Shown: one piece after another, positions 4,926 through 35,741 of the stretch | Layout of the letters: each line of letters starts with the position of its first letter | Position numbering within the stretch: the stretch's first letter is position 1 | From: a virus | DNA length: 64,000 nucleotides | IMG/VR virus record: IMGVR_UViG_3300046463_000548 | Location: 32,001 to 96,000 of that record | Reading direction: 5' to 3' (one strand) | Made by a program: the position numbers and the translations under genes | Notes under the pieces: generated by a model | The model's input: only the letters and a program-made list of their open reading frames with translations | The model's database searches: none | Told to the model about the DNA's origin: nothing

Positions 4926-4964
4926 TCGCTGGTTCAGGAGAGAAGTGTTGTTTACACCATTTAT

Positions 4965-5276: not shown

Positions 5277-5466
5277 CGCGTACCTCCGTGATGATCGATG
5301 GGCTTAGCAACACCGTGGCAACGCTCGCGGGAAGCCATTCATCACTAATGCAGTAATCACCCCGGCCAGTTATCCACGCACGCCACTCCTTTTGAAGTAA
5401 CCACGGATTCTCTTTCGCGAATTCGCTACTTGGGTCTATACGAATGAATACATATTTAACCGTCAT
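5263..5466 (-). CDS. Hypothetical protein
   Basis: ATG at 5466 overlaps the upstream stop; MTVKYVFIRID... Confidence 0.55.
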   Translation of the reverse strand: MTVKYVFIRIDPSSEFAKENPWLLQKEWRAWITGRGDYCISDEWLPASVATVLLSPSIITEVRDANP

Positions 5467-5603
5467 TTTCGCTCCCGTTTCTGCTGACAGTGCGATACGC
5501 ACGCCATGATCATGAGAAGGGCGATGAGACCAACAATCGCCCAGTTCCTCAGAAATATCGAAACGCCGATTACGGCCAGCCCGCCAGCTAGCGCAGCCTT
5601 CAT
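5463..5603 (-). CDS. Small membrane protein (46 aa, not in the ORF track)
   Basis: MKAALAGGLAVIGVSIFLRNWAIVGLIALLMIMACVSHCQQKRERK; ATGA overlaps with both neighbours. Confidence 0.6.
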   Translation of the reverse strand: MKAALAGGLAVIGVSIFLRNWAIVGLIALLMIMACVSHCQQKRERK

Positions 5604-6739: not shown

Positions 6740-6742
6740 GTT

Positions 6743-6991
6743 TTATTCGTCTGAGTCGTTCGTCGGTTCGTAGCGTTTGATTTCGCGGTCGATTGCATCC
6801 TCCACCGCGTTCCCGATGCGCTTCGGAATCACCCTTCTGTACATATCCATATCGGCACCGGGCGGCACGCTGTACGTCTCAGTAATGCCCATGCTCACCG
6901 GTTCGAATTTCGGTACCTGCACCGTTTTGTGGATCGTTATCGTTATCGAATCCGGTGTCGGGATCGGCGTAGATTTGGTGGAAGTCACCAT
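6743..6991 (-). CDS. Hypothetical protein (start uncertain, 6991 or 7075)
   Basis: Protein-like C-terminal part (ITITIHKTVQVPKFEPV...) ending just upstream of the clamp-loader gene. Confidence 0.55.
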   Translation of the reverse strand: MVTSTKSTPIPTPDSITITIHKTVQVPKFEPVSMGITETYSVPPGADMDMYRRVIPKRIGNAVEDAIDREIKRYEPTNDSDE

Positions 6992-7118
6992 AGAGTTCTG
7001 CCCATTCTGTGGACGGTCTAAACATCGTCCGTTGCTTACGTTTGCGCTGGCGTTCGTAGTCTGCCTGGAAGTCATCCAGTAGCTGTTTGCGCAGCGCTAC
7101 CCATTCACTTAGCTGCAT
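6879..7118 (-). CDS. Hypothetical protein
   Basis: 79-aa ORF overlapping the end of the Cas4-like gene and the start of the next ORF. Confidence 0.5.
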   Translation of the reverse strand: MQLSEWVALRKQLLDDFQADYERQRKRKQRTMFRPSTEWAELYGDFHQIYADPDTGFDNDNDPQNGAGTEIRTGEHGHY

Positions 7119-8007
7119 CCTTCAACTCTCTATTTACGAAAGCCCTCAGAGGCAGGTGATCGGACTGCTTGCCCAACCGGTACGCCTGCTTGAGTTGGTT
7201 GTACAGAACCTCGTCGTCCTTCTTGCAGACCGAGCACATGTCATTCGTGCACTTGTCGTATTCGAGCAGTGCCTTCACGTCGCTCCATGTCTCCGCATCC
7301 AGTGCGTCGTTGTGCGCGCGTCGATACCGTTTGATCCGGCGCAATACCTCTTCCCGTTTCGTATCGGTCAGAAGCCGTGCATACACGGGCGGTTCAACGC
7401 TGGGGTTGTCACGGAGAATGAACGCGTCCATGAATCCTTCGATCTTCTTTCCATACTGAATTTCGAAGAGGACTGCATAGACCTCGATCTGTTCGATATA
7501 GGCGGCACCCGGATTAGTCTTTTTGTTGGGCGCGGCCTTCACTGATGTCGTTTTGAAATCGAGAATCCACAACTTCCCTTTCTCATCTACGTACACCGCG
7601 TCGATGTGTCCCTTCATCCCCTTCGTGTCGATCCGCACCTCGTGATACTTCGTCGGAAATCCGCAGCACTCGTGCTTCAGTGACAGGCGGTGCCACTTCC
7701 CGCATTCGAGGCAGTGGTAGTCAGCGAGAAACCGGCCGCTCGCCGCGAGATACGACTGCATAACGTCGTGCACCACTGTTCCAACGCGCGTGTAGAAAGC
7801 GGTGCGCATCGACTGCGGTCGGTTCAAGCCGTATGAGGCGTGAGTAATGAAAAATTCGCGAGGACAAAAGGGGAGTTGTGAGGCGCGCAGCGAGAGGATT
7901 CGCATCGGTTCAACGCGCTCCATCATCACCGTGTTTTCAAGCGCGTTCGAATAAACGCGAAAGAAATCTTTGGCTATAGAAACAGATGTTAGGGGCCTCA
8001 CGCGCAT
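7105..8007 (-). CDS. Cas4-like PD-(D/E)XK exonuclease
   Basis: SQLPFCPR, GTVVH, GHIDAV, DFKT, QIEVYA and C-terminal CTNDMCSVC (1+3 Cys Fe-S pattern); extra CLEC...HECC insert. Confidence 0.85.
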   Translation of the reverse strand: MRVRPLTSVSIAKDFFRVYSNALENTVMMERVEPMRILSLRASQLPFCPREFFITHASYGLNRPQSMRTAFYTRVGTVVHDVMQSYLAASGRFLADYHCLECGKWHRLSLKHECCGFPTKYHEVRIDTKGMKGHIDAVYVDEKGKLWILDFKTTSVKAAPNKKTNPGAAYIEQIEVYAVLFEIQYGKKIEGFMDAFILRDNPSVEPPVYARLLTDTKREEVLRRIKRYRRAHNDALDAETWSDVKALLEYDKCTNDMCSVCKKDDEVLYNQLKQAYRLGKQSDHLPLRAFVNRELKDAAK

Positions 8008-8079
8008 ATAAAACCTTCAATTTTAGTGAACCAGTAATCAAATTCCCCTGTTTCTATACTTTATTTACTAGAGGCTTCT

Positions 8080-10608
8080 ATGATCGTGCAACTGACTGCT
8101 GCAGGGCAGGCGCTGCTAGAAGGCAATACGGGGCCAGTGACCGTCACGAGTTTCCAGCTTGGTTCGGCATACGGATACGTGCCCGAAGCATCAGACACAG
8201 GCATTCACGGAACCCTGGTATATACGGGCGTCCCATCAGCACCTCTCGCAGTTTCAGCAAACCTTGTTGCGTACTCGTCGTATCTCGATTACGACTTGGG
8301 ACCGTTCGAGTTCGGAGAAATCGGACTGTACGTCGGCTCAACGCTGTTTGCTCTGGCAACGGGCTCCGCTCCGATTTCGAAGAGCGCACCGGCCGCCAAC
8401 ACCTCAGGCAACTCGATACGAATTGATGCGTATGTATCGGTCGTCGGAACGAACTATCAAATGTGGTTGAACCTGGCTGAGTCCAGCAACGCTTTCCAGA
8501 TGGCGGTGCTTACCTCGCCCGATCTGTTGCCGCAGTCTCATCAAGCTGTCCCGAACGCGTACATAATTTCGGGCGTAGTAAATAGTCAGTCAGCGTTTCT
8601 TGCGTACACGGATAAGTTTGGTCTGTGGAACTTCGACGCGTATCAGTACGGGTACCAGACGCATGCGAATGTAGTTACGTCGGATTCGCAGTCGGTAACG
8701 ATAGCGTTGGACCAGTTTGTGTCGCAAATGCAGCCGCAGTATTTCGGCCAAGTGATTCTTGAGTTCACGAGCGGCGCTCTGTACTCAGTGTGTCGATACG
8801 TTGAGACAGCGATTGTGTCCGGCAACTTCGTGACGCTCGGTTTCGACTCACCTATCGCAATGCAGCCTGCGGCGGGCGATACGTTCGCGACGTTTGTTCG
8901 AGTGGCCGATTCGGAAATTCCGCAGTTCCCAGCGGCAACGACCTCCGAACTCGGTGGCGTTATTGTTGGCGAGTATCTAACGGTGCAGCCGAACGGGCTG
9001 CTCGCGGTGGATGCCGCAGCGCTCCCATACCCGGTGACTTCGGTCAATGGGCTGACCGGCGCGGTGGTTGTGCAAGCGACGAATAACAATGCTGCTTCAG
9101 GCGTGTCGTTGATTTCGAACTCAGGCGCAACGACAGGCGTTATCAGGCTGAAGACTATCGTTGCGGGCACGAACATCACAATAGCGCCGGACTCAAACGG
9201 CAACCTGCTGATTTCGGATACGTATGCACTTCCGATTGCGAGCCTCACTACACTTGGTGGAGTGAAAGCGCCTAGCGACGGCAACATCACGATTTCGGCA
9301 ACGGGCGTTATCGATCTGGGATTCACGCCCGTCACGTCGGTTGATGGGATGAGTGGCGCTGTCACTTTGCCGTTGGCTACGGCTGCTGCTCCTGGACTCA
9401 TGCAGGTTGGTACCGGCCTGTCAGTTACCAACGGAGTCGTTTCACTGAGCGCTAGCTCTCTCGTTACATCGGTGTCGGGCCAGACTGGTGACGTTGTTGT
9501 GCAGGCGACTAACAACAATTCAGCAACAGGCGTTTCGCTGATCACTAACAGTGGATCGACTACGGGCAACATCAAGCTGAAAACGATAGTGGCAGGCACG
9601 AACATCACGCTTGCGACGGATGCGAATGGCAATTTGCAAATCAACGGTACAGCCTCTCCCTACACGCTGCCGGTAGCTACCTCAACAGTCCTTGGGGGTG
9701 TGAAGCAAGGGGCTGGTGTGAGTATCGCAGGCGACGGGACCATTTCGGTTTCCGGGGTCGTGACTTCGGTATCGGGGCAGAGCGGGACAGTGACCGTGCA
9801 GGCGTCAGATAACAATGCTGCTACGGGCACGTCACTCATTGCTAACAGCGGAGCGACGACGGCTAACATCAAGCTGAAGACTATCGTTGCGGGCTCCAAC
9901 ATCACGTTGGCGGCTGACGGGAACGGTAATCTGCAAATCAACAGCGCTGCAGCACCCTACACATTGCCTGTAGCCACCTCATCTGTGTTGGGTGGTGTCA
10001 AGCAAGGCGCGAACGTCACCATTGCGGGCGACGGCACGATCAGTGTTGCGGCCTCACCGGTCACGTCTGTAAATGGGCAGACGGGTGCAGTAACTATCCA
10101 AGCGGCCGATACGTCAACAGCATCGGGAACAACGCTGATTTCCGATAACGGTACGGGCACAGGAACCATCAAGCTGCGTCGCATAGTGGCGGGTGCGGGC
10201 ATCGCCGTAGCTGTGGATGGTAACGGCAACCTTCAGGTTAGTGTGGCCAGCCAGTACTACGACGTGCCACTTGGCATCGCAGGAATTCCGGGTGCCAGCC
10301 AGATTGTCGGTCAGTTCGTCGCAGTGCGAACGATGAACTTCGCATCTAACTTTGTTGGGTCCGCTGGTTTCGCGACAGCTTCCGCCACGGCAAGCACGAC
10401 GTTCACCATCAACCGTATTCGCTCAGGCGCAACAACGGCAATCGGTACTGTGGTTTATGCAGCCTCAGGCACTGCACCTACGTTCACGACGACGGGCAGC
10501 GCAACGCAGCAGCTAATAGCCGGTGACATTCTGCAAGCTGTGGCTCCTGCAACAGCGGATGCGACGTTGGCCAACGCGACATTCACTCTTCTCGCTACGG
10601 CGGCTTAA
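8080..10608 (+). CDS. Tail fibre protein A
   Basis: N-terminal baseplate-anchor region shared with the 12193 and 43465 genes; repeated VTSVxGxTG / LKTIVAGxNIT / LPxAxxxxLGGVK modules. Confidence 0.85.
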   Translation: MIVQLTAAGQALLEGNTGPVTVTSFQLGSAYGYVPEASDTGIHGTLVYTGVPSAPLAVSANLVAYSSYLDYDLGPFEFGEIGLYVGSTLFALATGSAPISKSAPAANTSGNSIRIDAYVSVVGTNYQMWLNLAESSNAFQMAVLTSPDLLPQSHQAVPNAYIISGVVNSQSAFLAYTDKFGLWNFDAYQYGYQTHANVVTSDSQSVTIALDQFVSQMQPQYFGQVILEFTSGALYSVCRYVETAIVSGNFVTLGFDSPIAMQPAAGDTFATFVRVADSEIPQFPAATTSELGGVIVGEYLTVQPNGLLAVDAAALPYPVTSVNGLTGAVVVQATNNNAASGVSLISNSGATTGVIRLKTIVAGTNITIAPDSNGNLLISDTYALPIASLTTLGGVKAPSDGNITISATGVIDLGFTPVTSVDGMSGAVTLPLATAAAPGLMQVGTGLSVTNGVVSLSASSLVTSVSGQTGDVVVQATNNNSATGVSLITNSGSTTGNIKLKTIVAGTNITLATDANGNLQINGTASPYTLPVATSTVLGGVKQGAGVSIAGDGTISVSGVVTSVSGQSGTVTVQASDNNAATGTSLIANSGATTANIKLKTIVAGSNITLAADGNGNLQINSAAAPYTLPVATSSVLGGVKQGANVTIAGDGTISVAASPVTSVNGQTGAVTIQAADTSTASGTTLISDNGTGTGTIKLRRIVAGAGIAVAVDGNGNLQVSVASQYYDVPLGIAGIPGASQIVGQFVAVRTMNFASNFVGSAGFATASATASTTFTINRIRSGATTAIGTVVYAASGTAPTFTTTGSATQQLIAGDILQAVAPATADATLANATFTLLATAA

Positions 10609-10609
10609 T

Positions 10610-11542
10610 ATGTTTGCAATGAACTCTATGTGGTGGGGATCGGGGAAACCCCCGTTTCCTGCCTATAGCACGGGCGTGGGCATCTTCGGATCGAAGTTTG
10701 ACGCGATGATGAAATACGCGTTCACCAATAACGCGGTAGCCAATGGCACTGCGTTGGTATCCAACACCTTTGATGCTTCGGGCACTAGCACTCCGTCACT
10801 AGCGCTGTTTGCGGGCGGGCAAGATTCAGCCAACACAAAGATCGCAACGTCCTCGGTGTTGACGTTCGCTAGTGATTCGGTTTCTACGGGTGGCAACCTC
10901 AGGGTCTCGCGTGCACTGCCGAACAGTGTCGGCAACGCAACGATAGGCTACTTCGCAGGCGGTGATATTGGAACGGGCGGCTCATTCACTGGGTCTACGG
11001 CCGTTGACATCTACACGTATTCCAGTAACACATCAGCCTCAGGGACGGCACTGTCGCTGGGAATCAACGCATCAGCAACTTACGGCACTGCGACTATCGG
11101 TTACTTCTCAGGCGGTCAGGCATCCTCAGCTAGTCCCGCGTGGCAGGGTGCTACACAGAAATACACATACTCCAATAATTCGGCCACAACAGGAACCGCG
11201 CTGTCCGCAGTCAAGTCGTGGTGTGCAGGTATGAGTAACACCAGCCTAGGGATTATTGCGGGTGGTGGTAATTCGACGGGCGCGCTGGCGGTCACTGAGA
11301 AATACACCTTCGCTGGCGACGTTCGCACGCTTGGCACCAATCTTATGCAACCGCAATGGGGCGGAGCCGCTGCCGGAATAGCCTCGCTCGGTGTTGTAGC
11401 AGGGGGCGGTGCAACTGTAGGCAATGCCGCTGCCAAGACTTCGATCTATACCTATGCCGGTGACACTGTGGTCGGCGGTACTAATCTTCCCGCAGCCATT
11501 ACTTCCGCAACAGGTGTTTCGTCTACTCCGGGGCACTTCTAA
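10610..11542 (+). CDS. Kelch-like beta-propeller, putative fibre-tip/receptor-binding protein
   Basis: About six repeats of F/IAGG...KYTY/F...GTxL; ATG 1 nt after the fibre A stop. Confidence 0.65.
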   Translation: MFAMNSMWWGSGKPPFPAYSTGVGIFGSKFDAMMKYAFTNNAVANGTALVSNTFDASGTSTPSLALFAGGQDSANTKIATSSVLTFASDSVSTGGNLRVSRALPNSVGNATIGYFAGGDIGTGGSFTGSTAVDIYTYSSNTSASGTALSLGINASATYGTATIGYFSGGQASSASPAWQGATQKYTYSNNSATTGTALSAVKSWCAGMSNTSLGIIAGGGNSTGALAVTEKYTFAGDVRTLGTNLMQPQWGGAAAGIASLGVVAGGGATVGNAAAKTSIYTYAGDTVVGGTNLPAAITSATGVSSTPGHF

Positions 11543-11544
11543 TC

Positions 11545-12171
11545 ATGCACTATAAAACCAATCGACAGAACCATGATTTTCAGTTGGCATACTTTGTTGC
11601 CGGTTCGTGTAAAACACCCGATGCCGCTTGGTCTCTTCTATGCGACCTAAGGGATGATCGACAGGACGCGCTGAACCTGGCGAAGGCTGATTCGTTGCGC
11701 ACAGAAGCAAAGCGCATGCGTGCGCAAGCGATAGTGGACAGGAATGGTGTGACTGAAGCGGACAAGCTCGAAGCGCAAGCTGAATTGCTGGAAATTAACG
11801 GGTCGGCACAAACGACGCAGAAGAACATAGCGGCTGCTGAAGCCGAGCTTGCAATGATTCACAAGTTGCAGGAGCGTCTGCAACCGCTGCGTAAGTATGC
11901 ACACCTTCCGGACGCAGAAGCGCACGAGGCAGCGCAGGCTGAGGAATGGAAGCTCGAACTGATGTATCGAGCCGAGAATTTCATGTTGATGCAGGGTTCC
12001 ATACCGGTGGATCAGTTCGACACCATGCGTATGCACCCAGCGTTCACGACGGAGATTCTGCCGTTCCTGAACGAAATCCGTGCGCAGCTAGTTAATGTTC
12101 AAGGCGATCTGACGAAGCTCAAGTTTCTGACGCCAGCACTCGATATTCCGAAGCTGCTAGGCCACGCCTGA
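11545..12171 (+). CDS. Helical hypothetical protein, possibly a fibre chaperone
   Basis: 208-aa coiled-coil-like ORF between fibre genes. Confidence 0.6.
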   Translation: MHYKTNRQNHDFQLAYFVAGSCKTPDAAWSLLCDLRDDRQDALNLAKADSLRTEAKRMRAQAIVDRNGVTEADKLEAQAELLEINGSAQTTQKNIAAAEAELAMIHKLQERLQPLRKYAHLPDAEAHEAAQAEEWKLELMYRAENFMLMQGSIPVDQFDTMRMHPAFTTEILPFLNEIRAQLVNVQGDLTKLKFLTPALDIPKLLGHA

Positions 12172-12192
12172 ACAATCTAAAGGGGAATAATT

Positions 12193-14607
12193 TTGCTCGT
12201 TCAAATCACGAACGCGGGCGCAGCTTTGCTCGCAGCAAACTCAGGACCGATTGAACTGTCAACGTTCAAGCTGGGTTCTGCATACGGGTATATCCCGGAA
12301 TCAACAGACACGGATATTCACGGTACGCTCGTCAATACCGGTGCCCCTTCATCGTTCCAGGTGATTAACGCGAATGTCTTCAAATATTCCGTTTATCTGG
12401 ATTACGATCTTGGACCGTTTCAGTTTGGTGAGCTTGGACTCTTCACGACGGACGGTGTGCTGTTTGCGCTGGGTTCAAACTCGGTGCTCCTGAACAAGCA
12501 ACCCGAATCGGCGGGTGTGTTTTCGGGTAACTCGATTCGTCTCGATATCTATCTGTCGATTGTGGGTCAGAATTACGCGATGTGGTTGGACTATGCATCG
12601 TCATCCAACAATTTTCAGATGGCAGTCTTGCAATCAGTGGACAGCCTGCCGCCACCGCAGAGCGCAACGCCAAACGCCTACATCATCACGGGCGCGTCTT
12701 CGAGTCAGTCATCGTTTATGGCGTACACGTCGCAGACGGGACTCTGGAATTTCGACTGCTATCAGTACGCTAATCAGGCGGCTGCGACGGTCACGGCATT
12801 CACTCCCAATTCGATCACGATTTCGCAATCTCAGTATGTACCGGGAATGTCCCCAGCGTATCCGGGTGCGACGATCATCGAGTTTTCGAGCGGTGCGCTG
12901 TACGGGATTTGTCGCTACGTAGCGAACGTGACGTTGAGCGGCGGTAACGCAGTGCTCACGTTCGATACCCCGCTGATGCTGACACCGAAAGTAGGGGACA
13001 CGGTACTAGCGTTCGGGCGTCAGGCGCTGAGCACCACAATCCCTAACCTTCCGATTGCAACAACGTCATCGCTTGGTGCCGTGGTTGTTGGGGATACGCT
13101 GACGGTCACTTCAGGAGGTCTGCTGAACGTTAAGCCTACCTCTTATCCAGTGCTGTCGGTGAACGGTATGACGGGTGACGTTGTGCTGCAAGCCACCGAC
13201 ATTTCGGGCTTGGCGACTGTCGCAACGACCGGTTTGTATTCATCGCTTATCGGGACCCCGGCTCCGTACGCGTTGCCGGTCGCGACATCGTCAACGCTCG
13301 GAGGTGTGAAGGCTCCTTCAGATGGCAACCTGACGATTGGCCCCACCGGGATCATCGATCTTGGGTTCTCGCCCGTCAAGACTGTGAACGGCGGGTCTCC
13401 GGACGCGGCCGGAAATGTGGCGGTCGTGTTACCCGCTCCCGTGGGACTCGTTAACCCAACGGCCATTGATGCAGGCACCGACTTCAACACACTGAAAACG
13501 TGCGGCTTGTACTTCGGTCTGGATGCGAACGCTGCATCGTTTGTGAATGCGCCTTCGACAGCGGCGGGAGGCACGCTGGACATCGAGCCGTTCACAACAT
13601 CCGCAACTGGCGGTGACGTGATTCAGCGTTACCAGATGTCCAATGCGCTGTTTTTCCGGCGCTACACGCAAGCGTCAAACACGTGGTCAACCTGGACTCA
13701 GGTGTCAACGAGTTCTGCGCTTCCGATTGCGTCAGCTTCGACACTGGGTGGTGTCATGGTTGGGGCAGGACTGTCTGTTACAGGGGCGGGTGTGCTCTCG
13801 GCAAATGTTAAGAGCATCAACGGACAAACAGGAATCGTGGTGTTGGACGCGAGTTCAGTCGGTGCTCTTCCTTCAGATGTTGTGAACATTCCGGGCGGAG
13901 TGCCCTCGCTCGATATCAATACCGGGACTTCAAACCCCGATACCGACGCATACACGTATGGCCGGTTGCCGTTCTATCAGAACACCTTGGGCGACTGGTT
14001 CAATGCAGGGAAGTGGGATGCGTCAGCGAACCACGTGATCCAGTCACACACGGGCAACACGACAGCGGACACGAACACGTCACTGGTTTCCGGTGGACTG
14101 CAGACGATTGACATATCGTACAACGGCAAGGGTGTTACGGGTCTTTCCAATCCAGACTACGAGGCGGTCAACGCTGAGGGCATGGTCTATGAGGTGAGCG
14201 TCGCTGGAACCACAGCGCTGGATGGAATTAGCACGTGGAATGTGGGCGATTTGGCGGTGTGTATAAACGGCGCGTGGACTCGGATTCAGTCGGGCGCGGC
14301 TGCAAATTCGCTGACATCGAATAGCAGTTGGTATCGCACGAACCCGGACGGAACCTTGGAGATTGGTGGTCACCATGTAATGACGGCGGGTAGTACGACG
14401 ACGACTATAACGCTGCCTGTCACTATCGGTACCTATCTCAGCGGCTTGGTCACAGATATCGGCTCGGCCTGCTTCTCTGGAGGAATTGCGCCACTCAGTT
14501 CGACGCAAATCACGCTTTACGCACCTGCGTACTGGCTGGATAACACAGGGACTGCCGTTGCCCGTGGCGACTTCGATATGCAATGGCGCATCCTGGCTAA
14601 ACCTTAA
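12193..14607 (+). CDS. Tail fibre protein B
   Basis: TTG start after AGGGG; same N-terminal anchor as fibre A; LGGV and SVNG repeats; pyocin-knob-like and C-terminal PDGTLEIGG segments. Confidence 0.85.
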   Translation: MLVQITNAGAALLAANSGPIELSTFKLGSAYGYIPESTDTDIHGTLVNTGAPSSFQVINANVFKYSVYLDYDLGPFQFGELGLFTTDGVLFALGSNSVLLNKQPESAGVFSGNSIRLDIYLSIVGQNYAMWLDYASSSNNFQMAVLQSVDSLPPPQSATPNAYIITGASSSQSSFMAYTSQTGLWNFDCYQYANQAAATVTAFTPNSITISQSQYVPGMSPAYPGATIIEFSSGALYGICRYVANVTLSGGNAVLTFDTPLMLTPKVGDTVLAFGRQALSTTIPNLPIATTSSLGAVVVGDTLTVTSGGLLNVKPTSYPVLSVNGMTGDVVLQATDISGLATVATTGLYSSLIGTPAPYALPVATSSTLGGVKAPSDGNLTIGPTGIIDLGFSPVKTVNGGSPDAAGNVAVVLPAPVGLVNPTAIDAGTDFNTLKTCGLYFGLDANAASFVNAPSTAAGGTLDIEPFTTSATGGDVIQRYQMSNALFFRRYTQASNTWSTWTQVSTSSALPIASASTLGGVMVGAGLSVTGAGVLSANVKSINGQTGIVVLDASSVGALPSDVVNIPGGVPSLDINTGTSNPDTDAYTYGRLPFYQNTLGDWFNAGKWDASANHVIQSHTGNTTADTNTSLVSGGLQTIDISYNGKGVTGLSNPDYEAVNAEGMVYEVSVAGTTALDGISTWNVGDLAVCINGAWTRIQSGAAANSLTSNSSWYRTNPDGTLEIGGHHVMTAGSTTTTITLPVTIGTYLSGLVTDIGSACFSGGIAPLSSTQITLYAPAYWLDNTGTAVARGDFDMQWRILAKP

Positions 14608-14625
14608 TTCAAAACGGGGATTGAG

Positions 14626-14994
14626 ATGAGCAGACTGAAGTTGATAGCGCTGTGGTTTCTGGTCACGCTGTTCATGCCACTGTTCAGTGTTGTCATGCTG
14701 ATCCAAGCGGTAGTCGGATCGCATAGCAGAGCCAAAAATATGGCGTTAGCTCAAGACGAATGTGGAAACTCGATGTTCGGGGGACCTTCAACACAGACGA
14801 TGTCCTCGCGAGTTGGGGACGGTCTGATAGAAGGTAAAAGATGGGCCAAGATCATCGCTCCTGTTATCGATTTTTTATTCGGAGCCGGACATTGTTTGTC
14901 GAACGTCGATCTTGCGGCCGGTCTACTGACTGAGGCACAGGTGTCGGAAGTAGATGCAGCAGATAAAGAGCAGGGACTCCCCGCTCAATACTAA
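14626..14994 (+). CDS. Membrane-anchored hypothetical protein following the tail fibre
   Basis: Hydrophobic N-terminus; QDECGN...QTMSSRVG...IDFLFGAGHC. Confidence 0.65.
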   Translation: MSRLKLIALWFLVTLFMPLFSVVMLIQAVVGSHSRAKNMALAQDECGNSMFGGPSTQTMSSRVGDGLIEGKRWAKIIAPVIDFLFGAGHCLSNVDLAAGLLTEAQVSEVDAADKEQGLPAQY

Positions 14995-14998
14995 AACG

Positions 14999-15036
14999 AA
15001 GGCCCCAAGCAATCCTCTGCTTGGGGCCTTTGTCTT
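14999..15036. terminator. Intrinsic terminator between convergent genes
   Basis: 13-bp stem AAGGCCCCAAGCA / TGCTTGGGGCCTT. Confidence 0.8.
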
Positions 15037-15950
15037 TAACGAAAGAGTCCTTTGGTCTTCGGGTACATGACGCTGTGCAGATCGTGGTAAGGGCCGGGGA
15101 GTGAAATTACCGGCTTCTCCTTGTACAGCTTCCACTCATCTACGTCTGAGGGTGGTGCGCACGTATCCACAAGTTGCACGAGCTTGCGATTGCGGCGGAA
15201 TAGTTCGAGATTCTCTTGAATGAATCTGCGCTCCTTGCCGGTCGATTGCTTATACCAAGCCTGCAGCGTGCCGTGCTCTTCAAGCAGCTTCTTTGCAGTT
15301 ACAGGGCCGTAGCCCTTGATCGCAGGTATCGAGTCGCCCTTGTCGCCTATCAGCGTCTGGTAGTCCACCATCTGATCGACTCTGACGCCCTTGCGCGCTT
15401 CCGCGTCAGCCACCGTAATGAATCGCGGAGCCGCTTCTTTGGTTTGGGGGTCCTTGTACGAAGAGTCGTATAGCGAAACGTATTCGGTCAGGTACTGGTA
15501 TGCATCCTTGTCGGAGGTTCCGCAGATGACTCTGTATCTGTCTCCGTACTTGCGGGCTATCGAACACAGTACGTCGTCCGCTTCGTATTTCTTCGGTTGG
15601 TAGAAGCCCATACCGATTTGCGAGAACAGTTGGTAGATGGGATCAAGGAAATCGTACACGTCGAGTTCCGAGGCTGAACTGCGGTACCCATCGTCCACCG
15701 GTTCCGCGTGAGCCTTTCCGCTGCGTTCCCCCTTATATAGCGGATAAACCTTGTAGCGGAAAACGTCTGGGCCGTCGAACGCGCAGCACACGTAGTTTGC
15801 ACGTACCGCCAACGCGTCCTTGCAGATCATGCTCAACAGGCGGTAGGGAATGACTTCGGTCAACGGCCGGTTGGTCTTGGTCGTGAAGAAAATTCGGTGC
15901 AGATACCACGGACCGTCAGGGACAAAAATCGTCTCTCGTTTGCTTCTCAT
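15036..15950 (-). CDS. 5'-3' exonuclease / flap endonuclease (T4 RNase H / T5 D15 / PolI N-terminal-like)
   Basis: FDG...FRYKVYPLYKGER, YEADD, SDKD, LIGDKGDSIPAIKGYGPVTA (H3TH). Confidence 0.92.
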   Translation of the reverse strand: MRSKRETIFVPDGPWYLHRIFFTTKTNRPLTEVIPYRLLSMICKDALAVRANYVCCAFDGPDVFRYKVYPLYKGERSGKAHAEPVDDGYRSSASELDVYDFLDPIYQLFSQIGMGFYQPKKYEADDVLCSIARKYGDRYRVICGTSDKDAYQYLTEYVSLYDSSYKDPQTKEAAPRFITVADAEARKGVRVDQMVDYQTLIGDKGDSIPAIKGYGPVTAKKLLEEHGTLQAWYKQSTGKERRFIQENLELFRRNRKLVQLVDTCAPPSDVDEWKLYKEKPVISLPGPYHDLHSVMYPKTKGLFR

Positions 15951-16234
15951 TGCTCACCATGAAATGTGGATTCAACCACGATCTTGACGTGGGTGGTCGT
16001 CGCGTAGTCGGATTCGTCGGCTGTGTGGGCGTCGATAGCGCGCACCCGAAGATATGGATGAAACCTGGACTGGACCTCTGCCTGAAGCGCAGGGACCAGT
16101 TCTGCGTAGTCGTCGGCCGCGATGCCCGCTCCGCTCTGCTTCAGGAACGCGTGCATGAACAACAGAACTTCGCGTTCGTTTTCAACAATCGCACGTGATG
16201 CGCGCTGCGACGAAAGACCTAAAAGCTTCTGCAT
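15947..16234 (-). CDS. Hypothetical protein
   Basis: 95-aa ORF coupled to the exonuclease gene. Confidence 0.6.
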   Translation of the reverse strand: MQKLLGLSSQRASRAIVENEREVLLFMHAFLKQSGAGIAADDYAELVPALQAEVQSRFHPYLRVRAIDAHTADESDYATTTHVKIVVESTFHGEQ

Positions 16235-16336
16235 AGGTACACCCCCAATTCTTTATTTACTGCACACCGTGAAATTGCTGTGTGCAATGCATCGGGCATC
16301 AATTTCATCTCGGTAGTTCAGAAAAACGGAGCCTCT

Positions 16337-16744
16337 ATGCAGTTTGACCAAAAAGACCCATTTGGGTACCCGCTTGGCACCTATCTATGGGTGTTTGGGG
16401 TCGCGCTAATCGGGGGCGCAGTCAAGTACTTGAATCACAGTTCGAAATTCTCGTTCTATATCTTGTTTCGCGATCTTGTCACCGCGTGCTTCGCTGGGCT
16501 CTTGACCTTCTGGCTTTGCGAGTGGACCAACATCAACGGCCCGTTGTCCGCTGTGCTTATCTCGATAGCCGGATTGATGGGCACGCGTGCCTTGAGGGAA
16601 ATCGAAAATCTGTATCGGTTACGCATGGGTCTTCCTCCGGAATCTGACGAGGAACGGGAGCATCCCCAGAAGGTGGAAATTGACTTGAGGGTCAACGGGG
16701 GTGTTCAACAACGTCAAGGACGCACGGAGCACGAAGGGGATTAA
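16337..16744 (+). CDS. Putative holin
   Basis: Three hydrophobic segments, GGAVKYL...FAGLLTF...IAGLMG pattern, charged C-terminal tail, upstream of the endolysin. Confidence 0.8.
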   Translation: MQFDQKDPFGYPLGTYLWVFGVALIGGAVKYLNHSSKFSFYILFRDLVTACFAGLLTFWLCEWTNINGPLSAVLISIAGLMGTRALREIENLYRLRMGLPPESDEEREHPQKVEIDLRVNGGVQQRQGRTEHEGD

Positions 16745-16746
16745 AA

Positions 16747-17208
16747 GTGATTCTGACCAAAGAACATCTTTCGCTCAGGAGTATCCGGCGCGCTGCCGAT
16801 CATTTTCTGGCATTGTCCTCGCCGTTTGTCCTGGCAGCTTTAGTTGGTGTTGGGGGCGTGTGGTCGGTGGAACGTGCGCCCGCGCAGACCATTGTCGATA
16901 CGTCTACCTACTTCCAGGTTCGGGCGGGGCAGAGCCTGAACCTGGATGTCCCAGTGATCGTTCAGACGCAGGCACAGCGTGAGATGTATCGCACGTGGTT
17001 GACCGACGCGTCTGGGAACGTGGCCTACCGGTTCCCAGATCAAATGGTTCAGGACACAACGCGTCTGGACCTATCCAAACGACAGCTAACTGTTCCTACG
17101 TTCATCAAGAGCGGTGTGTACGTACTGCACGTAGAAGTGATCTATCCGTTCAATCCATTGAAGAACGGAACGATCCTGATGAGCGTTGCGACGCTGTACA
17201 TAGATTGA
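16747..17208 (+). CDS. Membrane-anchored beta-rich protein in the lysis cassette
   Basis: N-terminal hydrophobic helix followed by an Ig-like beta domain. Confidence 0.6.
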   Translation: MILTKEHLSLRSIRRAADHFLALSSPFVLAALVGVGGVWSVERAPAQTIVDTSTYFQVRAGQSLNLDVPVIVQTQAQREMYRTWLTDASGNVAYRFPDQMVQDTTRLDLSKRQLTVPTFIKSGVYVLHVEVIYPFNPLKNGTILMSVATLYID

Positions 17209-18024: not shown

Positions 18025-19851
18025 ATGGAAAGCGTATTTTATTATCCAGTGACCCTGCACAGGGGCGCTGTAGCTACACCTGTAGTCGCGGCGTGGGCCC
18101 AGTCACTTCCTAACAGCAACGATATTCAGAGTTTGGTGCTGGTGCTGTCCAGTTCGGAGGGCACGCAAGAGCCTGGTATGTATCTGTGGGATGGATCGCG
18201 TTGGCGTCTGACTATCCCATACCAGAACGTGGCCTATGCCATCATCAACGGCGCGCAACTCGATCTGTATTTTAGTTTGTCCGCACCCGTGCAAACACCC
18301 GCGACGGGAACGGTTGATGTTTGGCGAAACGCCATTGAATTCCCGACCACTTCACTCGCAAGCGAAAACAATCTCGTGTGGGGTGTTTCCTACGTGCCCG
18401 CTGTGGGCGCGGGTGCGGGGACGGTAACGTCGGTCAACAACGTGGGTCCTGACGGTACCGGGAACGTCTCAATCGCAATCTCGAACATTCCGGGCCTGCA
18501 GGCAGCGCTCGCGAATGCTGGTTCGGTCAAGACGGTGGATGGTCAATCACCCGACGCGAACGGCAACATTGTCGTTAGAGCGCAGGATAACAACGCAGCA
18601 TCAGGCGTGTCGCTTATCGCTGATTCGGGTGCGACCACAGGCAACATAAAGCTAACACGCCTAGTAGCGGGTTCAGGTATCACGCTCGCAGCGGATGCTA
18701 ACGGCAACCTGAAGATCAACGGTTCGTCACAGGGCGTAACGCAAGTTACCTCTGAAGGCACGGGGACTTCGTTGATCGGAAATGACGGGACGACGGGTGG
18801 TATCGCCATTCTCAAGTCGCTAGCTGCCGGTTCGAACATCACGATCACACCAGATGCACAGAACCAGACGCTGACCATTACTGCGAATCAGACTATCACT
18901 CCAGCTACAACCTCAGCGCTTGGTGGCGTTATCGTCAAGGCCGGTTTGTCTGTGGATGGTTCGGGCAATCTGTCTTTGGCCGCACCTACGGGTGTGAATC
19001 TCGGTGGCGTGAAAGCTGGTACCGGTATTTCGATAGCAGCAGACGGCACAATCTCAGCTTCCGGCGCGGTGACTTCAGTATCTGGACAGACGGGTGCGGT
19101 TGTAGTCCAAGCATCGGACACGTCAACTGCTTCGGGTACCTCACTAATTAGTGACTCAGGTGCTACGACTGGAAACATCAAGATCAAGCGCGTTGTTGCA
19201 GGCTCCAACATTACGTTGGCGGCTGACGGTAATGGCAACCTGCGGATCAATTCGACGTTGACCTCTGCGGTGACCTCGTTTGCAACGGGCACGTCAGGTC
19301 AGTTGGTTGGTGACATCGTATTTGCTGCGGGTCAGGCGATTTCACTGTCGAACACGGGCAACACGATTCAAATCAACGGTACAGGCGTTCCTGAGGCTCC
19401 CAACGACGGCGGCCTATACGGTCGTCAGAACCAGGGGTGGACGGCGATTCCTGCCACTTCGAATCCGATTGTTGAGGTCAACGGGCAAACGGGTACGGGG
19501 GCTGTGTTGTTGGTTGAGGCATCGCCTCCAGCTAATACCGCTGTCATCAAATCGCTGGTCGCTGGTGCCAACGTCTCGATCACCGATAACTCCGGGCTCA
19601 TCACGATCACTGCGTCGATACCTGGAGGCACGGTCGCTACTGTCAACAGCAAAGGACCCGATGGTTCGGGCAACGTGACGCTTGCTGCCTCTGATGTGTC
19701 TGCGCTTCCTATCGTAGGCGGAACTATGGGCGGGGCCATCAACATGAACTCATTCAAGGTCACGGGGCTACCTACGCCAACTGTTGGGAGTGATGCCGTT
19801 CCTCTCTCGCTCATCACGGGATTGGTAATTGACGGCGGCGTGATTGGTTAA
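18025..19851 (+). CDS. Tail fibre-like protein C
   Basis: Same repeat modules as fibre A; VPEAPNDGGLYGRQNQGW foldon-like motif; C-terminal IDGG. Confidence 0.8.
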   Translation: MESVFYYPVTLHRGAVATPVVAAWAQSLPNSNDIQSLVLVLSSSEGTQEPGMYLWDGSRWRLTIPYQNVAYAIINGAQLDLYFSLSAPVQTPATGTVDVWRNAIEFPTTSLASENNLVWGVSYVPAVGAGAGTVTSVNNVGPDGTGNVSIAISNIPGLQAALANAGSVKTVDGQSPDANGNIVVRAQDNNAASGVSLIADSGATTGNIKLTRLVAGSGITLAADANGNLKINGSSQGVTQVTSEGTGTSLIGNDGTTGGIAILKSLAAGSNITITPDAQNQTLTITANQTITPATTSALGGVIVKAGLSVDGSGNLSLAAPTGVNLGGVKAGTGISIAADGTISASGAVTSVSGQTGAVVVQASDTSTASGTSLISDSGATTGNIKIKRVVAGSNITLAADGNGNLRINSTLTSAVTSFATGTSGQLVGDIVFAAGQAISLSNTGNTIQINGTGVPEAPNDGGLYGRQNQGWTAIPATSNPIVEVNGQTGTGAVLLVEASPPANTAVIKSLVAGANVSITDNSGLITITASIPGGTVATVNSKGPDGSGNVTLAASDVSALPIVGGTMGGAINMNSFKVTGLPTPTVGSDAVPLSLITGLVIDGGVIG

Positions 19852-19866
19852 TGAGGGAAAAAGATA

Positions 19867-21141
19867 ATGAACGTTAATATTCCAGTCGCGCTCCCAAGGA
19901 TACTCACGGCGGGAGTAAAGCCGACAGCAGCGCAGCTTCTTCAGGGGCAATTGTCGATTAATCTGGTGGACCGCAAGCTGTTCACACTCGATAACACTGG
20001 GGCAATCCAACAGATCGGAGTGGCTTTATCGGACCTGTCTGCAGTCGCCGCCACGGGTAGCTATAACGACCTGAAAGACAAGCCAAACATCAGTGGATCG
20101 TATGTGCTGCCCGCTGCGACAGCTACTGTCTTGGGCGGTGTGTTGATCCCTACGGCGGCCGGGTTGTCAGTAGCCGCCAACGGGACACTTACCAATACGG
20201 GTGTGCTGTCCGTCAACTCGCGCACGGGAGCAATCACACTCACAGCTACTGACGTGGGACTGCCTACCGATCTTTTGTCGGGGCCTTCCACAACTGTGGC
20301 ATCGAAGTATCTACCGGCGTCGCTCGGTGGTGCGCTGACGTATCAGACGACGTGGAACGCATCAACGAACACACCTGCTCTCGCTTCGGGTGTTGGCACC
20401 AAGGGCTTCTACTACGTGGTGTCCGTGGCGGGTACCACCAATCTGAATGGGATAAGCACGTGGGGCGTAGGTGATTGGGCTATCTATGATGGCACAGCTT
20501 GGGGGCGCTTGGCTAACTCAAGCTCAGCCGTAGCGTCCGTCAATAGCAAGACGGGTGCGGTCACGCTTACCGCTGCGGACATTACAGGCTTCGCTGCGGT
20601 GGCAACGTCAGGCAACTACAACGACCTGTCGAATAAGCCAACGCCGTACTCGCTGCCCGTAGCGACTACCGCAGCAATCGGCGGTGTGATGCTGACAACC
20701 GCTGCACAGCAAGCGGGTAATTCCGCGACAGGCAAATTGGCGTCGGTTGCGACATCGGGCTCGTACAACGATCTTCTGAATCTGCCTGCAAATCCGAGCG
20801 TCGCGCGACTTCCGGTGAACGTGCAGGGAAATCCGAACGTCATCACCGAAGTGTTTTATGACTTCTCGCAAGCCTGCCAGTTTCCGCAAAACTTTGCGGG
20901 TTCGGTAATCACGGCGAAGCTCATATCAGGGACTACGGCCACCATTCGCATCATGCAATACAACACGGCCAATCCGTCAGGTGTGCAGGTGGGCACGATC
21001 AACGTCGATACGGTCAACGGCACGACGTTTAGTTCAGTGGGTTCCGTCACGTCCTACGCAATCGGGGATGAACTGTCATATCAGTTCGTGACTACGAACA
21101 TCTCGCGTTTCACCGTGACCCTTCAGGGCACGTGGCAGTAG
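19867..21141 (+). CDS. Tail fibre-like protein D
   Basis: N-terminal LLQGQLSINLVDRKLF (Mtd-N/hyaluronidase-type), VATSGxYNDL repeats, C-terminal domain resembling that of fibre A. Confidence 0.8.
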   Translation: MNVNIPVALPRILTAGVKPTAAQLLQGQLSINLVDRKLFTLDNTGAIQQIGVALSDLSAVAATGSYNDLKDKPNISGSYVLPAATATVLGGVLIPTAAGLSVAANGTLTNTGVLSVNSRTGAITLTATDVGLPTDLLSGPSTTVASKYLPASLGGALTYQTTWNASTNTPALASGVGTKGFYYVVSVAGTTNLNGISTWGVGDWAIYDGTAWGRLANSSSAVASVNSKTGAVTLTAADITGFAAVATSGNYNDLSNKPTPYSLPVATTAAIGGVMLTTAAQQAGNSATGKLASVATSGSYNDLLNLPANPSVARLPVNVQGNPNVITEVFYDFSQACQFPQNFAGSVITAKLISGTTATIRIMQYNTANPSGVQVGTINVDTVNGTTFSSVGSVTSYAIGDELSYQFVTTNISRFTVTLQGTWQ

Positions 21142-31784: not shown

Positions 31785-31813
31785 TTGACGGTCTGTGCAA
31801 AGTCACTTAGAAT
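31785..31813 (+). promoter_or_regulatory. sigma70-type promoter
   Basis: TTGACG-17 bp-TAGAAT. Confidence 0.8.
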
Positions 31814-31851
31814 GGACTTGTTGGTTGAGTGAACGACTGAGGGGAACGAAA

Positions 31852-32145
31852 ATGGCGGGTCAATATCTTGCACTTTGTCAGCGATGCAACGGCACCGGCC
31901 GGTATGATCGCGGTGCCTGTTTTGGTTGCCGCCCCTTCGGATCGTTGGGTTGGGTCCGGCGTGTGACCCGGGCGCGGGACGGTGCACAGGTTACCGCGAT
32001 CAGGGATGAAGCGGAAGGCCGGATTGACTGGGTCGTGATTTACGGCGCAACTCCAAAGCAGGCTGTGCAGATCGTGCAGCGGCAGATGCGTGTAGCACAG
32101 AAGCCCGGTGCGCTGATCGAAAGCGTGCGGGCCGTAGCTCTTTGA
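31852..32145 (+). CDS. Zinc-finger hypothetical protein
   Basis: CQRCNGTG...CFGC. Confidence 0.65.
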   Translation: MAGQYLALCQRCNGTGRYDRGACFGCRPFGSLGWVRRVTRARDGAQVTAIRDEAEGRIDWVVIYGATPKQAVQIVQRQMRVAQKPGALIESVRAVAL

Positions 32146-32437: not shown

Positions 32438-32764
32438 ATGTCGAACTTTCCGCAAAAATGGATCATCTGCGGGTGCTGCTCTGGCAACGGGCGCGTCGAG
32501 AATCAGGCGTTCTCCAACGGCTTCTCTTCGAGCGAGTGGGCAGACATGGACCAGGACGGACGGGACGCGTACATGCGCGGTGACTACGACGTTACCTGCG
32601 ATCCTTGCAGGGGTTCGGGCAAGGTGCAAGTCCCGGACGCGTCGCGTATGACGTTCGCACAGAAGCGCGAGTACGTGCTCGAACTGCGCGAGGCACGCGA
32701 AGAAGCTGCCGATCTGGCCGACATGCGCCGCGAAGAAGCCGCAGAGCGCCGCATGGGTTGCTGA
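32438..32764 (+). CDS. DnaJ-type CxxCxGxG zinc-finger protein
   Basis: CGCCSGNG...CDPCRGSG; TAAGGAG RBS. Confidence 0.7.
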   Translation: MSNFPQKWIICGCCSGNGRVENQAFSNGFSSSEWADMDQDGRDAYMRGDYDVTCDPCRGSGKVQVPDASRMTFAQKREYVLELREAREEAADLADMRREEAAERRMGC

Positions 32765-33067: not shown

Positions 33068-33619
33068 ATGACCACTATTTGCTGCCCGTCCTGCGACTGG
33101 ACCGGCTATTCGTACGAAGCGAACAGCCTGACCAACGATCAACTTCGCGCACTGCAACCCGGCACGCCGGTACCGTACGGCGCGTGCCCGCTCTGCCGCA
33201 CGCCGCTCATTCCGGGCCAGGTCTTCGCGACCGACGAACTTCACCCGGAATTCGATTGGAACGCGGAACGTCCCGAACGTCAGAACCTCACGCAGTATCA
33301 GCGCGACTGCCTGGTGAACCTGATTGCGAAGCTGGTGCCGGACCATCCGGGTTTCCTGGGCTCGAACGAAATCGCGTTTGCTCTGCGCTCGACTATCGGG
33401 TCTGAAATCCCTATCGACTGCCCGCCGTTCAACCAGTTGACGTTGGCCCCGTACATGCAATCGTGGGTCTATCCGCTGCTGGTCGGCGCACTCTACGGTG
33501 AGCCGTATCCTGGACATCGTCGCCATGTGACAGACGACGCCGCACAAGTGCGCAACGCAGTGAAGATCAAGCGCATCGCGCCAGAACAGACGGGCAGCAC
33601 GGACGAGCTTCTATCATGA
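33068..33619 (+). CDS. Hypothetical protein with an N-terminal zinc ribbon
   Basis: CPSCDW...CPLC. Confidence 0.65.
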   Translation: MTTICCPSCDWTGYSYEANSLTNDQLRALQPGTPVPYGACPLCRTPLIPGQVFATDELHPEFDWNAERPERQNLTQYQRDCLVNLIAKLVPDHPGFLGSNEIAFALRSTIGSEIPIDCPPFNQLTLAPYMQSWVYPLLVGALYGEPYPGHRRHVTDDAAQVRNAVKIKRIAPEQTGSTDELLS

Positions 33620-33864: not shown

Positions 33865-34164
33865 ATGTCGGTCGAAGATTTGCACGAAGTTGCAGGCGTC
33901 ACAGGTGGTCACGCAGTGGTCAAGATTCAGTCCGGGACCGATCACAAATGGATCGAGCTTTACGACGACGAGTGGGATACGATTCTCGGCACGCTGCCTG
34001 CGGAGACGGGCGCGGATACGATCAGCACAGTGCTAAGCATGATCAATCGCGCGTTTGATCGCGGCTTCGAAACGGGCAAGGCACGCAAGCAATACGAACT
34101 GTGTGAAGTGCTCGGAGTGCATCGGCTCGTGCGTGATCTGAAGGACGAAATCAGGGAAAGGTGA
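33865..34164 (+). CDS. Hypothetical protein
   Basis: AAGGAG RBS. Confidence 0.65.
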   Translation: MSVEDLHEVAGVTGGHAVVKIQSGTDHKWIELYDDEWDTILGTLPAETGADTISTVLSMINRAFDRGFETGKARKQYELCEVLGVHRLVRDLKDEIRER

Positions 34165-34349
34165 CTGGAGTGATAACGGAGAAAGAGTTGCCAAAGGGCT
34201 ACGCGTGCGAAGCTTGTGGCACGGAGCACCGGTTCCCTGCCTATGTGTACGCACACTGGGAGGTGCGGATTACGCACTCGTGCGACTGCGGGGCGAAGCA
34301 CAGCGTTCTGTGCGGCGTTGCTACACTTGTTGAACAAAACGAAGAATAG
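34161..34349 (+). CDS. Small zinc-ribbon protein
   Basis: CEACG...CDCG. Confidence 0.6.
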   Translation: MTGVITEKELPKGYACEACGTEHRFPAYVYAHWEVRITHSCDCGAKHSVLCGVATLVEQNEE

Positions 34350-34377
34350 TTGACGGTTTGTGCAGGACCTGTATAAT
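34350..34377 (+). promoter_or_regulatory. sigma70-type promoter
   Basis: TTGACG-16 bp-TATAAT. Confidence 0.8.
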
Positions 34378-34419: not shown

Positions 34420-34662
34420 ATGAGCAAATTTACTGACCAGTTTGACGCGGTGGTGGCGGCGTTGAATAGTGCACCATTCGCCGCGCAAGTTGCTTGGGAT
34501 TCAGCAAGTTGCCATGCTCAAGACGTTCTTGGTGGCGAAGCATGCAAGTGGGAAACGGAGGCATTCAAGGAATACGTTGTCGGCTGCGTTGACCAAGCTT
34601 CGTACTTTCAGGAAAGCGCTGAGGCACGGGAGTTTTTCGAAGAATTCGGTATCTTTGGCTGA
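34420..34662 (+). CDS. Small acidic hypothetical protein
   Basis: First gene after the promoter; D/E-rich. Confidence 0.65.
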   Translation: MSKFTDQFDAVVAALNSAPFAAQVAWDSASCHAQDVLGGEACKWETEAFKEYVVGCVDQASYFQESAEAREFFEEFGIFG

Positions 34663-34672
34663 GGGGAACGGG

Positions 34673-35062
34673 ATGGACGGACAAGTGATCGACGTTTCTG
34701 TGTGCTCTGATCTGTACGTAGCGGGCCGCACCGAAGACGGTGAAATGTACACGGCCGAAGTTTATCTGGTGTGCGCTGAATTTGCGGACGGTTCCGTGTA
34801 CGCGCATAGCGAGCGCTTCAAGGGCTGCAAGATCGAAGAGTGGGCAGACGAAGACGATCACGGTACCGCGTTCGTTGACATCCGTGAAGAACAGAAGGCA
34901 AAGGCCGAGAAACTGGCTGCGCGTGTCAATCAGTGTGTGGCTACAGGCCGCAAGCTCGATCCGCAGTTCTGGACGTTTCATCGCACAGTGTACGGGTCTT
35001 CAGCCTACCTCCACGAAGTTGCAGAAATGACGCCACGCCAACGCGCGGGCGAACCGGATTAA
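34673..35062 (+). CDS. Hypothetical protein
   Basis: GAGGGG RBS; YGSSAY motif. Confidence 0.65.
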   Translation: MDGQVIDVSVCSDLYVAGRTEDGEMYTAEVYLVCAEFADGSVYAHSERFKGCKIEEWADEDDHGTAFVDIREEQKAKAEKLAARVNQCVATGRKLDPQFWTFHRTVYGSSAYLHEVAEMTPRQRAGEPD

Positions 35063-35073
35063 GGGAGTAGCAG

Positions 35074-35301
35074 ATGGGTATCAAGTACGCCGTAGAGCAG
35101 CGCCTTCGCTTCATTGATTTTTTGGTGTCTCACTACGGCACGATCAACAGGGAAGCGCTCACCGACTACTACGGTATCTCGTTGCCTCAGGCGTCTGACG
35201 ACATCGCTGAGTACAAAAAGATGGCACCGAATAACATCGTGTATGACAACACCAAGAAGACCTACGCAAGGGGCGCACTGTTCGCGCGGGTGTGGGACTG
35301 A
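35074..35301 (+). CDS. Stand-alone winged helix resembling the N-terminal domain of CapW-type WYL repressors
   Basis: EQRLRFIDF...GTINR..LTDYYGISLPQASDDIAEY...APNNIVYD...KTY; stops at 75 aa with no WYL/WCX domain. Confidence 0.8.
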   Translation: MGIKYAVEQRLRFIDFLVSHYGTINREALTDYYGISLPQASDDIAEYKKMAPNNIVYDNTKKTYARGALFARVWD

Positions 35302-35333
35302 TTTTTGACAGAGCGCTACCACTCACACAGGTC

Positions 35334-35741
35334 ATGAAAATAAACAATCCTTTTCCCATAGAGATTGACGAACTGATGGCCCAGATGGCTGCGTTCGAGG
35401 AAGCCAACACGAAAGCGTGTATGGGTCCTGCACAGCGTACGGAGGGATTTCTGCTGCTCGGTACCTTCGCGCAGGCATACGTAAGTCAGGAGGTGTCGAG
35501 TCGTTTTGTCGGCTGGGTGATGGCGTCCATGGCGAGCGGGCGTAGTGTCCTGCCTGAGCCCGGAAGTGCGCACGATCTGCTGCGCTGGTGCAAGAAGTAC
35601 GAAAGTGTCCTGTCCAGTAGTCTGCTAGCGATGGAGGCTTCGAAAACTGACGCTGAAATACTGGAAGACTGTAGGGGCATGCTCGAAGCGTTGCGCGAAA
35701 CAATTAAGGTTGCGGAGAGCGGACAAACAGTGCGTCACTGA
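35334..35741 (+). CDS. Hypothetical protein
   Basis: ORF in a co-directional array; not recognisably WYL-like. Confidence 0.55.
   Translation: MKINNPFPIEIDELMAQMAAFEEANTKACMGPAQRTEGFLLLGTFAQAYVSQEVSSRFVGWVMASMASGRSVLPEPGSAHDLLRWCKKYESVLSSSLLAMEASKTDAEILEDCRGMLEALRETIKVAESGQTVRH

Follow-up and report, generated by a model that had tools for sequence, protein, structure and literature searches.

A conserved phage-borne family of stand-alone CapW/BrxR-type winged-helix heads lacking the WYL sensor

The window analysed in this study, a stretch of 64,000 nucleotides (positions 32,001 to 96,000 of the record IMGVR_UViG_3300046463_000548), lies within a virus record from rhizosphere metagenomes. 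Its sequence and ORF list contain, at 35074-35301 on the + strand, an ORF with an ATG start that encodes a protein of 75 aa, referred to here as the head protein; a ribosome-binding site (GGGAG, 35063-35067, +) can be read 6 bases 5' of the ATG. The preliminary description had spoken of a complete gene with its own ribosome-binding site, and this is what lies at the locus. The head gene is the third gene of an operon. ORF 1 (34420-34662, +; 80 aa) gave no family match, and ORF 2 (34673-35062, +; 129 aa counted from an internal ATG) weakly matched PHROG 1507, where no function is assigned; its TAA at 35060-35062 stands 11 bases before the head gene. Downstream follows an ORF of 135 aa (35334-35741, +), likewise without family match, and no terminator-like site was found on the + strand between the head gene and this ORF. 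The same order (80, 129, 75, and 135 aa) is present on a related phage contig, which encodes P0001, a head protein with 97% identity. A block of small same-strand ORFs without known function or family match surrounds the head gene. CxxC pairs are frequent in several of the small early ORFs (31795-32145, 32438-32764, 33068-33619, and 34161-34349); in the one at 32438-32764, the DnaJ CXXCXGXG zinc finger was matched weakly and below the threshold (E = 7.7e-4). An antisense ORF of 87 aa (35059-35322, -) overlaps the head gene, and similar antisense frames were seen in 30 loci; the most likely reading of these frames is that they mirror the conservation of the sense gene and do not represent a further gene.

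The promoter scan detected TTGACG-16-TATAAT, with 11 of 12 consensus positions, at 34350-34377 (+). The near-consensus sigma70 promoter that had been noted upstream of the head gene thus exists; however, it is located about 700 bp away and, since ORFs 1 and 2 lie between, it belongs to the operon and is not the head gene's own. It is one of a family of near-identical promoters with a TGTGC element in the spacer. The core pattern TTGAC-N4-TGTGC has 17 matches in the 153.7-kb record, and most copies on the + strand are followed by a well-spaced TAtAAT and then by a conserved TTCTGTGG; the form of the family is TTGACGnTTTGTGC...GTAtAAT...TTCTGTGG. In the window, its sites are found at 26448, 31785, 34350, and 45306, the copy at 45306 being devoid of the -10 element; record-wide (G000:C1), sites are found at 4212-17123, 58448-66350, 129266, and 150091. 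They are probably early promoters, recognized by the host polymerase. Their conserved spacer and post -10 elements exceed the needs of sigma70 and could be the site of a regulator.

The clamp loader of the phage shares 54-55% identity with its counterparts in two Burkholderia jumbo phages (BcepSauron and BcepSaruman) and in Ralstonia phage phiRSL1, and the phage also encodes an SbcC-like protein and a baseplate wedge subunit. The carrier is a BcepSauron/phiRSL1-like jumbo phage, in which the head gene is an early accessory gene. Within the phage collection, no head match was found in BcepSauron and phiRSL1, the nearest cultured relatives, and megablast of the region against the same collection gave no match. 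Four large ORFs (8080-10608, 12193-14607, 18025-19851, and 19867-21141) have PHROG 9625 and tail-fibre-like segments in common, so that host recognition by this phage may rely on a module of several fibres.

Only the DNA-binding head of CapW-type proteins had been recognized in the 75-aa product, and comparisons with known structures bore this out. In a phmmer search of the PDB sequences, the protein matched P. aeruginosa CapW (7tb5, E = 3.3e-15), with chain residues 19-88 alone being aligned, followed by S. maltophilia CapW (7tb6, E = 5.7e-10) and E. fergusonii BrxR (7qfz, E = 1.3e-8); further matches were to the head of R. leguminosarum CapW and to that of Acinetobacter BrxR. With a profile built from 51 family members, the E values were 8.6e-24 for P. 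aeruginosa CapW, 5.9e-22 for S. maltophilia CapW, 7.6e-16 for E. fergusonii BrxR, 2.7e-14 for R. leguminosarum CapW, and 1.1e-10 for Acinetobacter BrxR. As this profile scores CapW above BrxR, the head-only family is nearer to CapW than to BrxR. The family assignment was also confirmed by the Pfam domain WHD_BrxR (PF26109), which is precomputed on all 24 of 24 near-length homologues. Our search of the query against the Pfam, PHROGs, NCBIfam, and PADLOC profiles returned no match; the Pfam set used did not contain PF26109, so this result is uninformative, and a full-length relative searched against the same set gave WYL only. The resemblance to the CapW-type head alone is far beyond chance.

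The AlphaFold2 model of the head protein has a pLDDT of 96.3 and consists of a helix at residues 5-21, a helix at 26-33, a recognition helix at 37-50, and wing strands at 55-58 and 63-66. Foldseek superimposed it on the CapW/BrxR heads (7tb6, 7qfz, and 7tb5) with TM scores of 0.92-0.96 and an rmsd of 0.5-1.1 A, and the next fold class, comprising other wHTH folds, followed after a clear gap at E > 1e-2. The predicted structure contains the three-helix and two-strand wing fold of the WHD_BrxR (PF26109) family.

The WYL sensor that follows the head in CapW-type proteins was described as missing, and the six-frame searches agreed with this. No WYL domain (PF13280) was detected at E <= 1 in six frames of the 153.7-kb record, which represents 63% of the estimated genome. 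When the full-length relative P0064 (303 aa) was searched against the six frames of the record, its residues 13-81 alone were matched, and no WCX or linker part was found. A full-length WYL regulator gene that was recently truncated, or that is decaying, could look similar, and the domain homology itself, but nothing further, speaks for such an origin. Against it, the near-length homologues, which are 53-97% identical to the query, all have 73-84 aa, while a search at all lengths (815 matches at E <= 1e-3) returned full-length proteins with at best only about 50% identity. Among 174 proteins from both searches, 57 are stand-alone heads, and 32 more carry extra N-terminal sequence, nearly all of them having the same end. 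A tree was built from 119 head domains (82 head-only rows including the query, 29 full-length regulators, and 8 short rows). All 82 head-only rows fall on one side of a branch with an SH-aLRT support of 95, and all 29 full-length regulators on the other; the 8 short rows fall among the full-length heads, do not have the C-terminus of the head-only family, and are taken for fragments. Furthermore, the C-terminus is at the same position or within two residues of it in 42 of 42 IMG/VR relatives. With a separate clade and a fixed stop, recent truncation of a full WYL gene is ruled out, and we attach practically no probability to the remnant origin as a whole. By this tree, the head-only proteins are a single old clade and did not arise by repeated capture from host regulators.

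Some members of the head-only clade carry additional parts. P0027 has an extra N-terminal CI-type HTH (HTH_3, E = 1.7e-13), and P0036 and P0049 have N-terminal zinc-ribbon-like CxxC pairs, which suggests that the head is reused as a module beside others that may bind DNA or mediate dimerisation. In Burkholderiales genomes, a few matches score like the full-length clade and lie in frames of 103-129 aa (G346:C1:1801667-1801885, G108:C2:566138-566356, and G310:C79:31771-31989); cellular regulators that were truncated independently, or whose genes are split, could explain these.

The head-only clade is mostly viral. Clusters of the same length and family in the Atlas are labelled 65-83% viral, and a search of IMG/VR and bacterial genomes, made with an alignment of 17 close rows, yielded 42 IMG/VR carriers of 7.7 to 233 kb. 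Bacterial copies were found in Paraburkholderia, Sulfuriferula, Luteimonas, and a Desulfuromonadales MAG; three of them are present as the same DNA in IMG/VR provirus records, and the copy in Paraburkholderia tropica has an excisionase and an integrase nearby. Among 50,697 phage records, the sole match was gp088 (CPT_Sonora_088) of Stenotrophomonas phage Sonora. The head was the only gene common to the four loci compared first, and no neighbour gene common to all head-bearing loci was found, the phages and proviruses being unrelated. Beyond close relatives, the only recurrent neighbour among 50 loci was a DUF5131 gene (PF07505), present in seven. This gene adjoins the head gene or lies within 2 kb of it (at 10231-11274 in locus L003, and also in L010, L012, L032, L033, and L044), and the loci linked to it include Paraburkholderia proviruses.

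The residues by which CapW and BrxR contact DNA were compared with those of the head-only clade. In S. maltophilia CapW, the mutations R32A and S42/Q45/S47 to alanine were designed to disrupt DNA binding (PMC9122588). In the phmmer alignment (offset 6), R32, S42, Q45, and S47 correspond to R26, S36, Q39, and S41 of the query, which are conserved in 96, 85, 76, and 65% of the head-only clade, respectively. The contacts listed in PMC9122589 for the crystal structure of Acinetobacter BrxR with DNA include R11, S37, R38, Q39, Q40, H59, K64, and Y66. By the profile alignment, in which the BrxR chain numbering is +3, R11, S37, Q40, H59, K64, and Y66 correspond to R10, S36, Q39, Y57, K62, and Y64 of the query; in the clade, R10 is invariant, and Y57 is conserved in 90%, K62 in 81% (with R in a further 17%), and Y64 in 91%. 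The base-reading R38 of BrxR, in contrast, has its equivalent at the hypervariable position 37 of the clade, and the entropy reaches 2.7-3.5 bits at positions 37, 42, 45, 46, and 49, the expected base-reading positions. Most of the residues conserved family-wide map to BrxR contacts that are not given as base-specific in PMC9122589. Because the DNA-contact residues of CapW/BrxR are conserved, it is a well-founded inference that the protein binds duplex DNA via the CapW/BrxR surface.

A different set of residues distinguishes the clade from full-length proteins. Y5, A6, R12, L17, Y21, D31, Y32, and R72 are conserved specifically in the head-only clade, whereas full-length heads instead conserve W5, G/S6, E12, R17, W20, D28, and P72. 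The head of full-length proteins is packed onto the linker helices and onto the WYL domain of the partner (PMC9122589, PMC11662680). We infer that the changed positions correspond to this interface between head, linker, and WYL domain, which was probably rebuilt for life without it. The absence of the domains normally used for dimerisation, raised early on as a caveat, holds: the chain stops short of the linker helices by which the BrxR/CapW dimer is held together (PMC9122589, PMC11662680). Since even dimeric E. coli CapW binds its site at about 3 uM (PMC11662680), a monomeric head should bind weakly. A compensation of the lost dimer avidity by charge was not seen, as the net charge of the query is +1 and that of the clade no higher than that of full-length heads.

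CapW/BrxR-type WYL repressors, which act from palindromic operators that overlap the -10 of the promoter they control, gate many bacterial defence systems, from which they are released by ssDNA. A head without its sensor might act as follows. It would bind double-stranded DNA as CapW and BrxR do, using the helix residues R10, R26, S36, Q39, and S41 and the wing residues Y57, K62, and Y64. As there is no WYL/WCX sensor, ssDNA could not release it or switch it off, and binding would be constitutive. As the canonical dimer interface is missing, binding would have to involve a monomer, a pair templated by the DNA, or a new interface, which could use the clade-specific Y5, A6, R12, L17, Y21, D31, Y32, and R72. 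The 228-bp gene travels alone and is packed in operons without flanking non-coding DNA, which makes a target supplied by the host somewhat likelier than one supplied by the phage. The leading candidate would be an operator from which a CapW/BrxR-type regulator controls a host defence or stress locus; sitting there, the head could cover the -10 region of the promoter and dampen de-repression in the course of infection. Occupation of host CapW/BrxR-type operators by the head is possible, and we put it forward tentatively. Rather doubtful is the fuller proposal of a repressor mimicry, in which a dedicated phage family of sensor-less heads would act on host defence operators controlled by WYL proteins and block the infection-induced up-regulation of CBASS, BREX, or other systems.

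The early accessory position of the gene and its patchy spread among phages are circumstantial evidence for an anti-defence role. De-repression of WYL-controlled defence raises the levels of defence proteins and improves protection against phages with counter-defences, which the cells can then overcome (10.1101/2025.11.13.688357), and this would give a phage a selective reason to block it. In the same source, the WYL repressors of two V. cholerae systems are reported to respond to the same cue and to be operator-specific, without regulatory crosstalk, and in PMC9122588, CapW mutants that repress constitutively still protect via CBASS against lambda. Full-length relatives of the head adjoin ubiquitin-like/E2 genes, or an HNH-domain gene and a weak Lactamase_B match; the query gene is not beside a defence operon and lies in the early block of the phage, among ORFs without known function. 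One of five bacterial genomes carrying a provirus copy contains a full-length head. In a sample of 401 Burkholderiales genomes, 54 contained a head match, and the frames concerned were almost always about 290-340 aa long; against the resulting base rate of about 12% for full-length heads, the five genomes show no enrichment of host regulators. When the recognition signature (positions 37, 42, 45, 46, and 49) was compared with 85 cellular heads, a weak test as these were not taxon-matched, the best match of a head-only protein averaged 2.45, against 2.39 +/- 0.05 for column-shuffled controls, and a ten-position signature compared with the same cellular heads was likewise null against column-shuffled controls. 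Sonora gp088 and CapW of S. maltophilia C11 differ at all six of the six variable recognition positions compared. Recurrent inverted repeats in the 153.7-kb record are at chance level (127, compared with 116-147 in shuffled sequence), and two is the highest number of occurrences of any half-site; in the upstream regions of the nearest full-length relatives no clear palindrome was found. To repress host defence operons in a signal-blind manner is a plausible role for the head, but one that these results do not support.

The head might instead regulate the phage's own genes, for example by shutting off or tuning early promoters, and have no anti-defence role. A small wHTH protein from an early operon would fit such a function, as would the features of the early promoters beyond the needs of sigma70, i.e., the TGTGC spacer and the TTCTGTGG after the -10, and, in P0027, the fusion of the head with an HTH of the CI type that phage repressors typically have. 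We nevertheless judge this unlikely, as the promoter element with its -10 was not found in the 6-20 kb stretches of other head loci, where a single chance-like match without a -10 was obtained, and the record has no recurrent palindromic site. In addition, the head is the only gene that carriers have in common, it sits inside tightly packed operons without an upstream region of its own in the loci inspected, and it has no match in BcepSauron and phiRSL1. Binding to host DNA outside of defence loci, either in other stress or DNA-damage regulons of the WYL type or as a loose coating by a host-takeover factor, would also agree with a conserved DNA-contact surface, an early accessory block, and a gene that travels alone. 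That the conserved residues are mostly at BrxR contacts not given as base-specific, and that the base-reading positions vary strongly, points in the same direction. The closest cellular relatives, however, are defence-associated repressors by their architecture and neighbourhood, and for a coating role one would look for a higher net charge than that of full-length heads, but the query has just +1; we therefore give this alternative a low probability, too.

An action by protein contact, in which the head docks via the clade-specific face of helix 1 on a host CapW/BrxR-type regulator or another partner, appears improbable. It would account for the replacement of W5, R17, W20, and D28, conserved in full-length proteins only, by another conserved set in the clade, and the packing of the full-length head against the linker helices and the partner's WYL domain (PMC11662680) provides a surface for it, of which these residues are the putative interface. 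Yet a pure protein binder would have no need for DNA-contact residues, which are strongly conserved here, and the new surface could equally serve self-association or cover an exposed core. Among the possible DNA targets, host CapW/BrxR-type operators, held tentatively, are the ones we prefer.

What we report is a complete, conserved, and phage-borne member of the CapW/BrxR wHTH family that consists of the head only, has its DNA-contact residues intact, and is encoded in an operon with an early-type promoter. The databases already tag these proteins with the domain name, so that their existence is recorded, but not their biology. In a full-text literature search and in targeted reading of the CapW/BrxR papers PMC9122588, PMC9122589, PMC9122601, and PMC11662680, of the BREX survey, and of 10.1101/2025.11.13.688357, we found no phage-encoded or stand-alone CapW/BrxR heads; nor did the literature searched contain a report of counter-defence by shutting host defence promoters via a repressor head. 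A conserved, mostly viral clade that keeps the DNA-binding head alone is the form expected of a signal-blind mimic. If the head holds host defence promoters shut, counter-defence would act on transcription and not on the defence proteins. If it instead regulates phage genes, the head domain would work without its usual dimer scaffold. As a cultured carrier exists in Stenotrophomonas phage Sonora (gp088), either answer is reachable by ordinary assays.

Among the proteins of cultured phages, the hypothetical protein CPT_Sonora_088 belongs to the same head-only family, shares 62% identity with the query over a protein of 75 aa, and is likewise encoded inside a same-strand array of small genes. 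Sonora itself is a 64-kb siphovirus of the Mesyanzhinovviridae and thus unlike the jumbo carrier described here; the compared neighbourhoods have no other gene in common. A structural match (TM 0.89) was obtained with a 97-aa hypothetical protein of Pantoea phage vB_PagM_LIET2. Compared to BrxR, the BREX-associated WYL regulator (PDB 7QFZ and 7T8K), the query has the same head fold (TM 0.90-0.95) and the same Pfam domain, WHD_BrxR, but the match of the family profile is weaker than to CapW (E = 1e-10 to 8e-16 versus 1e-22 to 1e-24), and the WYL and C-terminal domains of BrxR are both absent from the query. CapW (PDB 7TB5, 7TB6, and 9C5G), the CBASS-associated repressor with a wHTH-WYL-WCX architecture, has the same wHTH head, with 46% identity between the query and P. 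aeruginosa CapW over 70 residues and, for CapW heads, TM scores of 0.92-0.96 and an rmsd of 0.5-0.7 A to the model. In contrast to CapW, the query has no linker helices, WYL, or WCX, and therefore neither ssDNA sensing nor the canonical domain-swapped dimer, and helix 1 of the head-only clade has a conserved residue set that differs from that of CapW. Finally, the CapW gene is located upstream of a defence operon, whereas the query gene belongs to an early operon of a phage.
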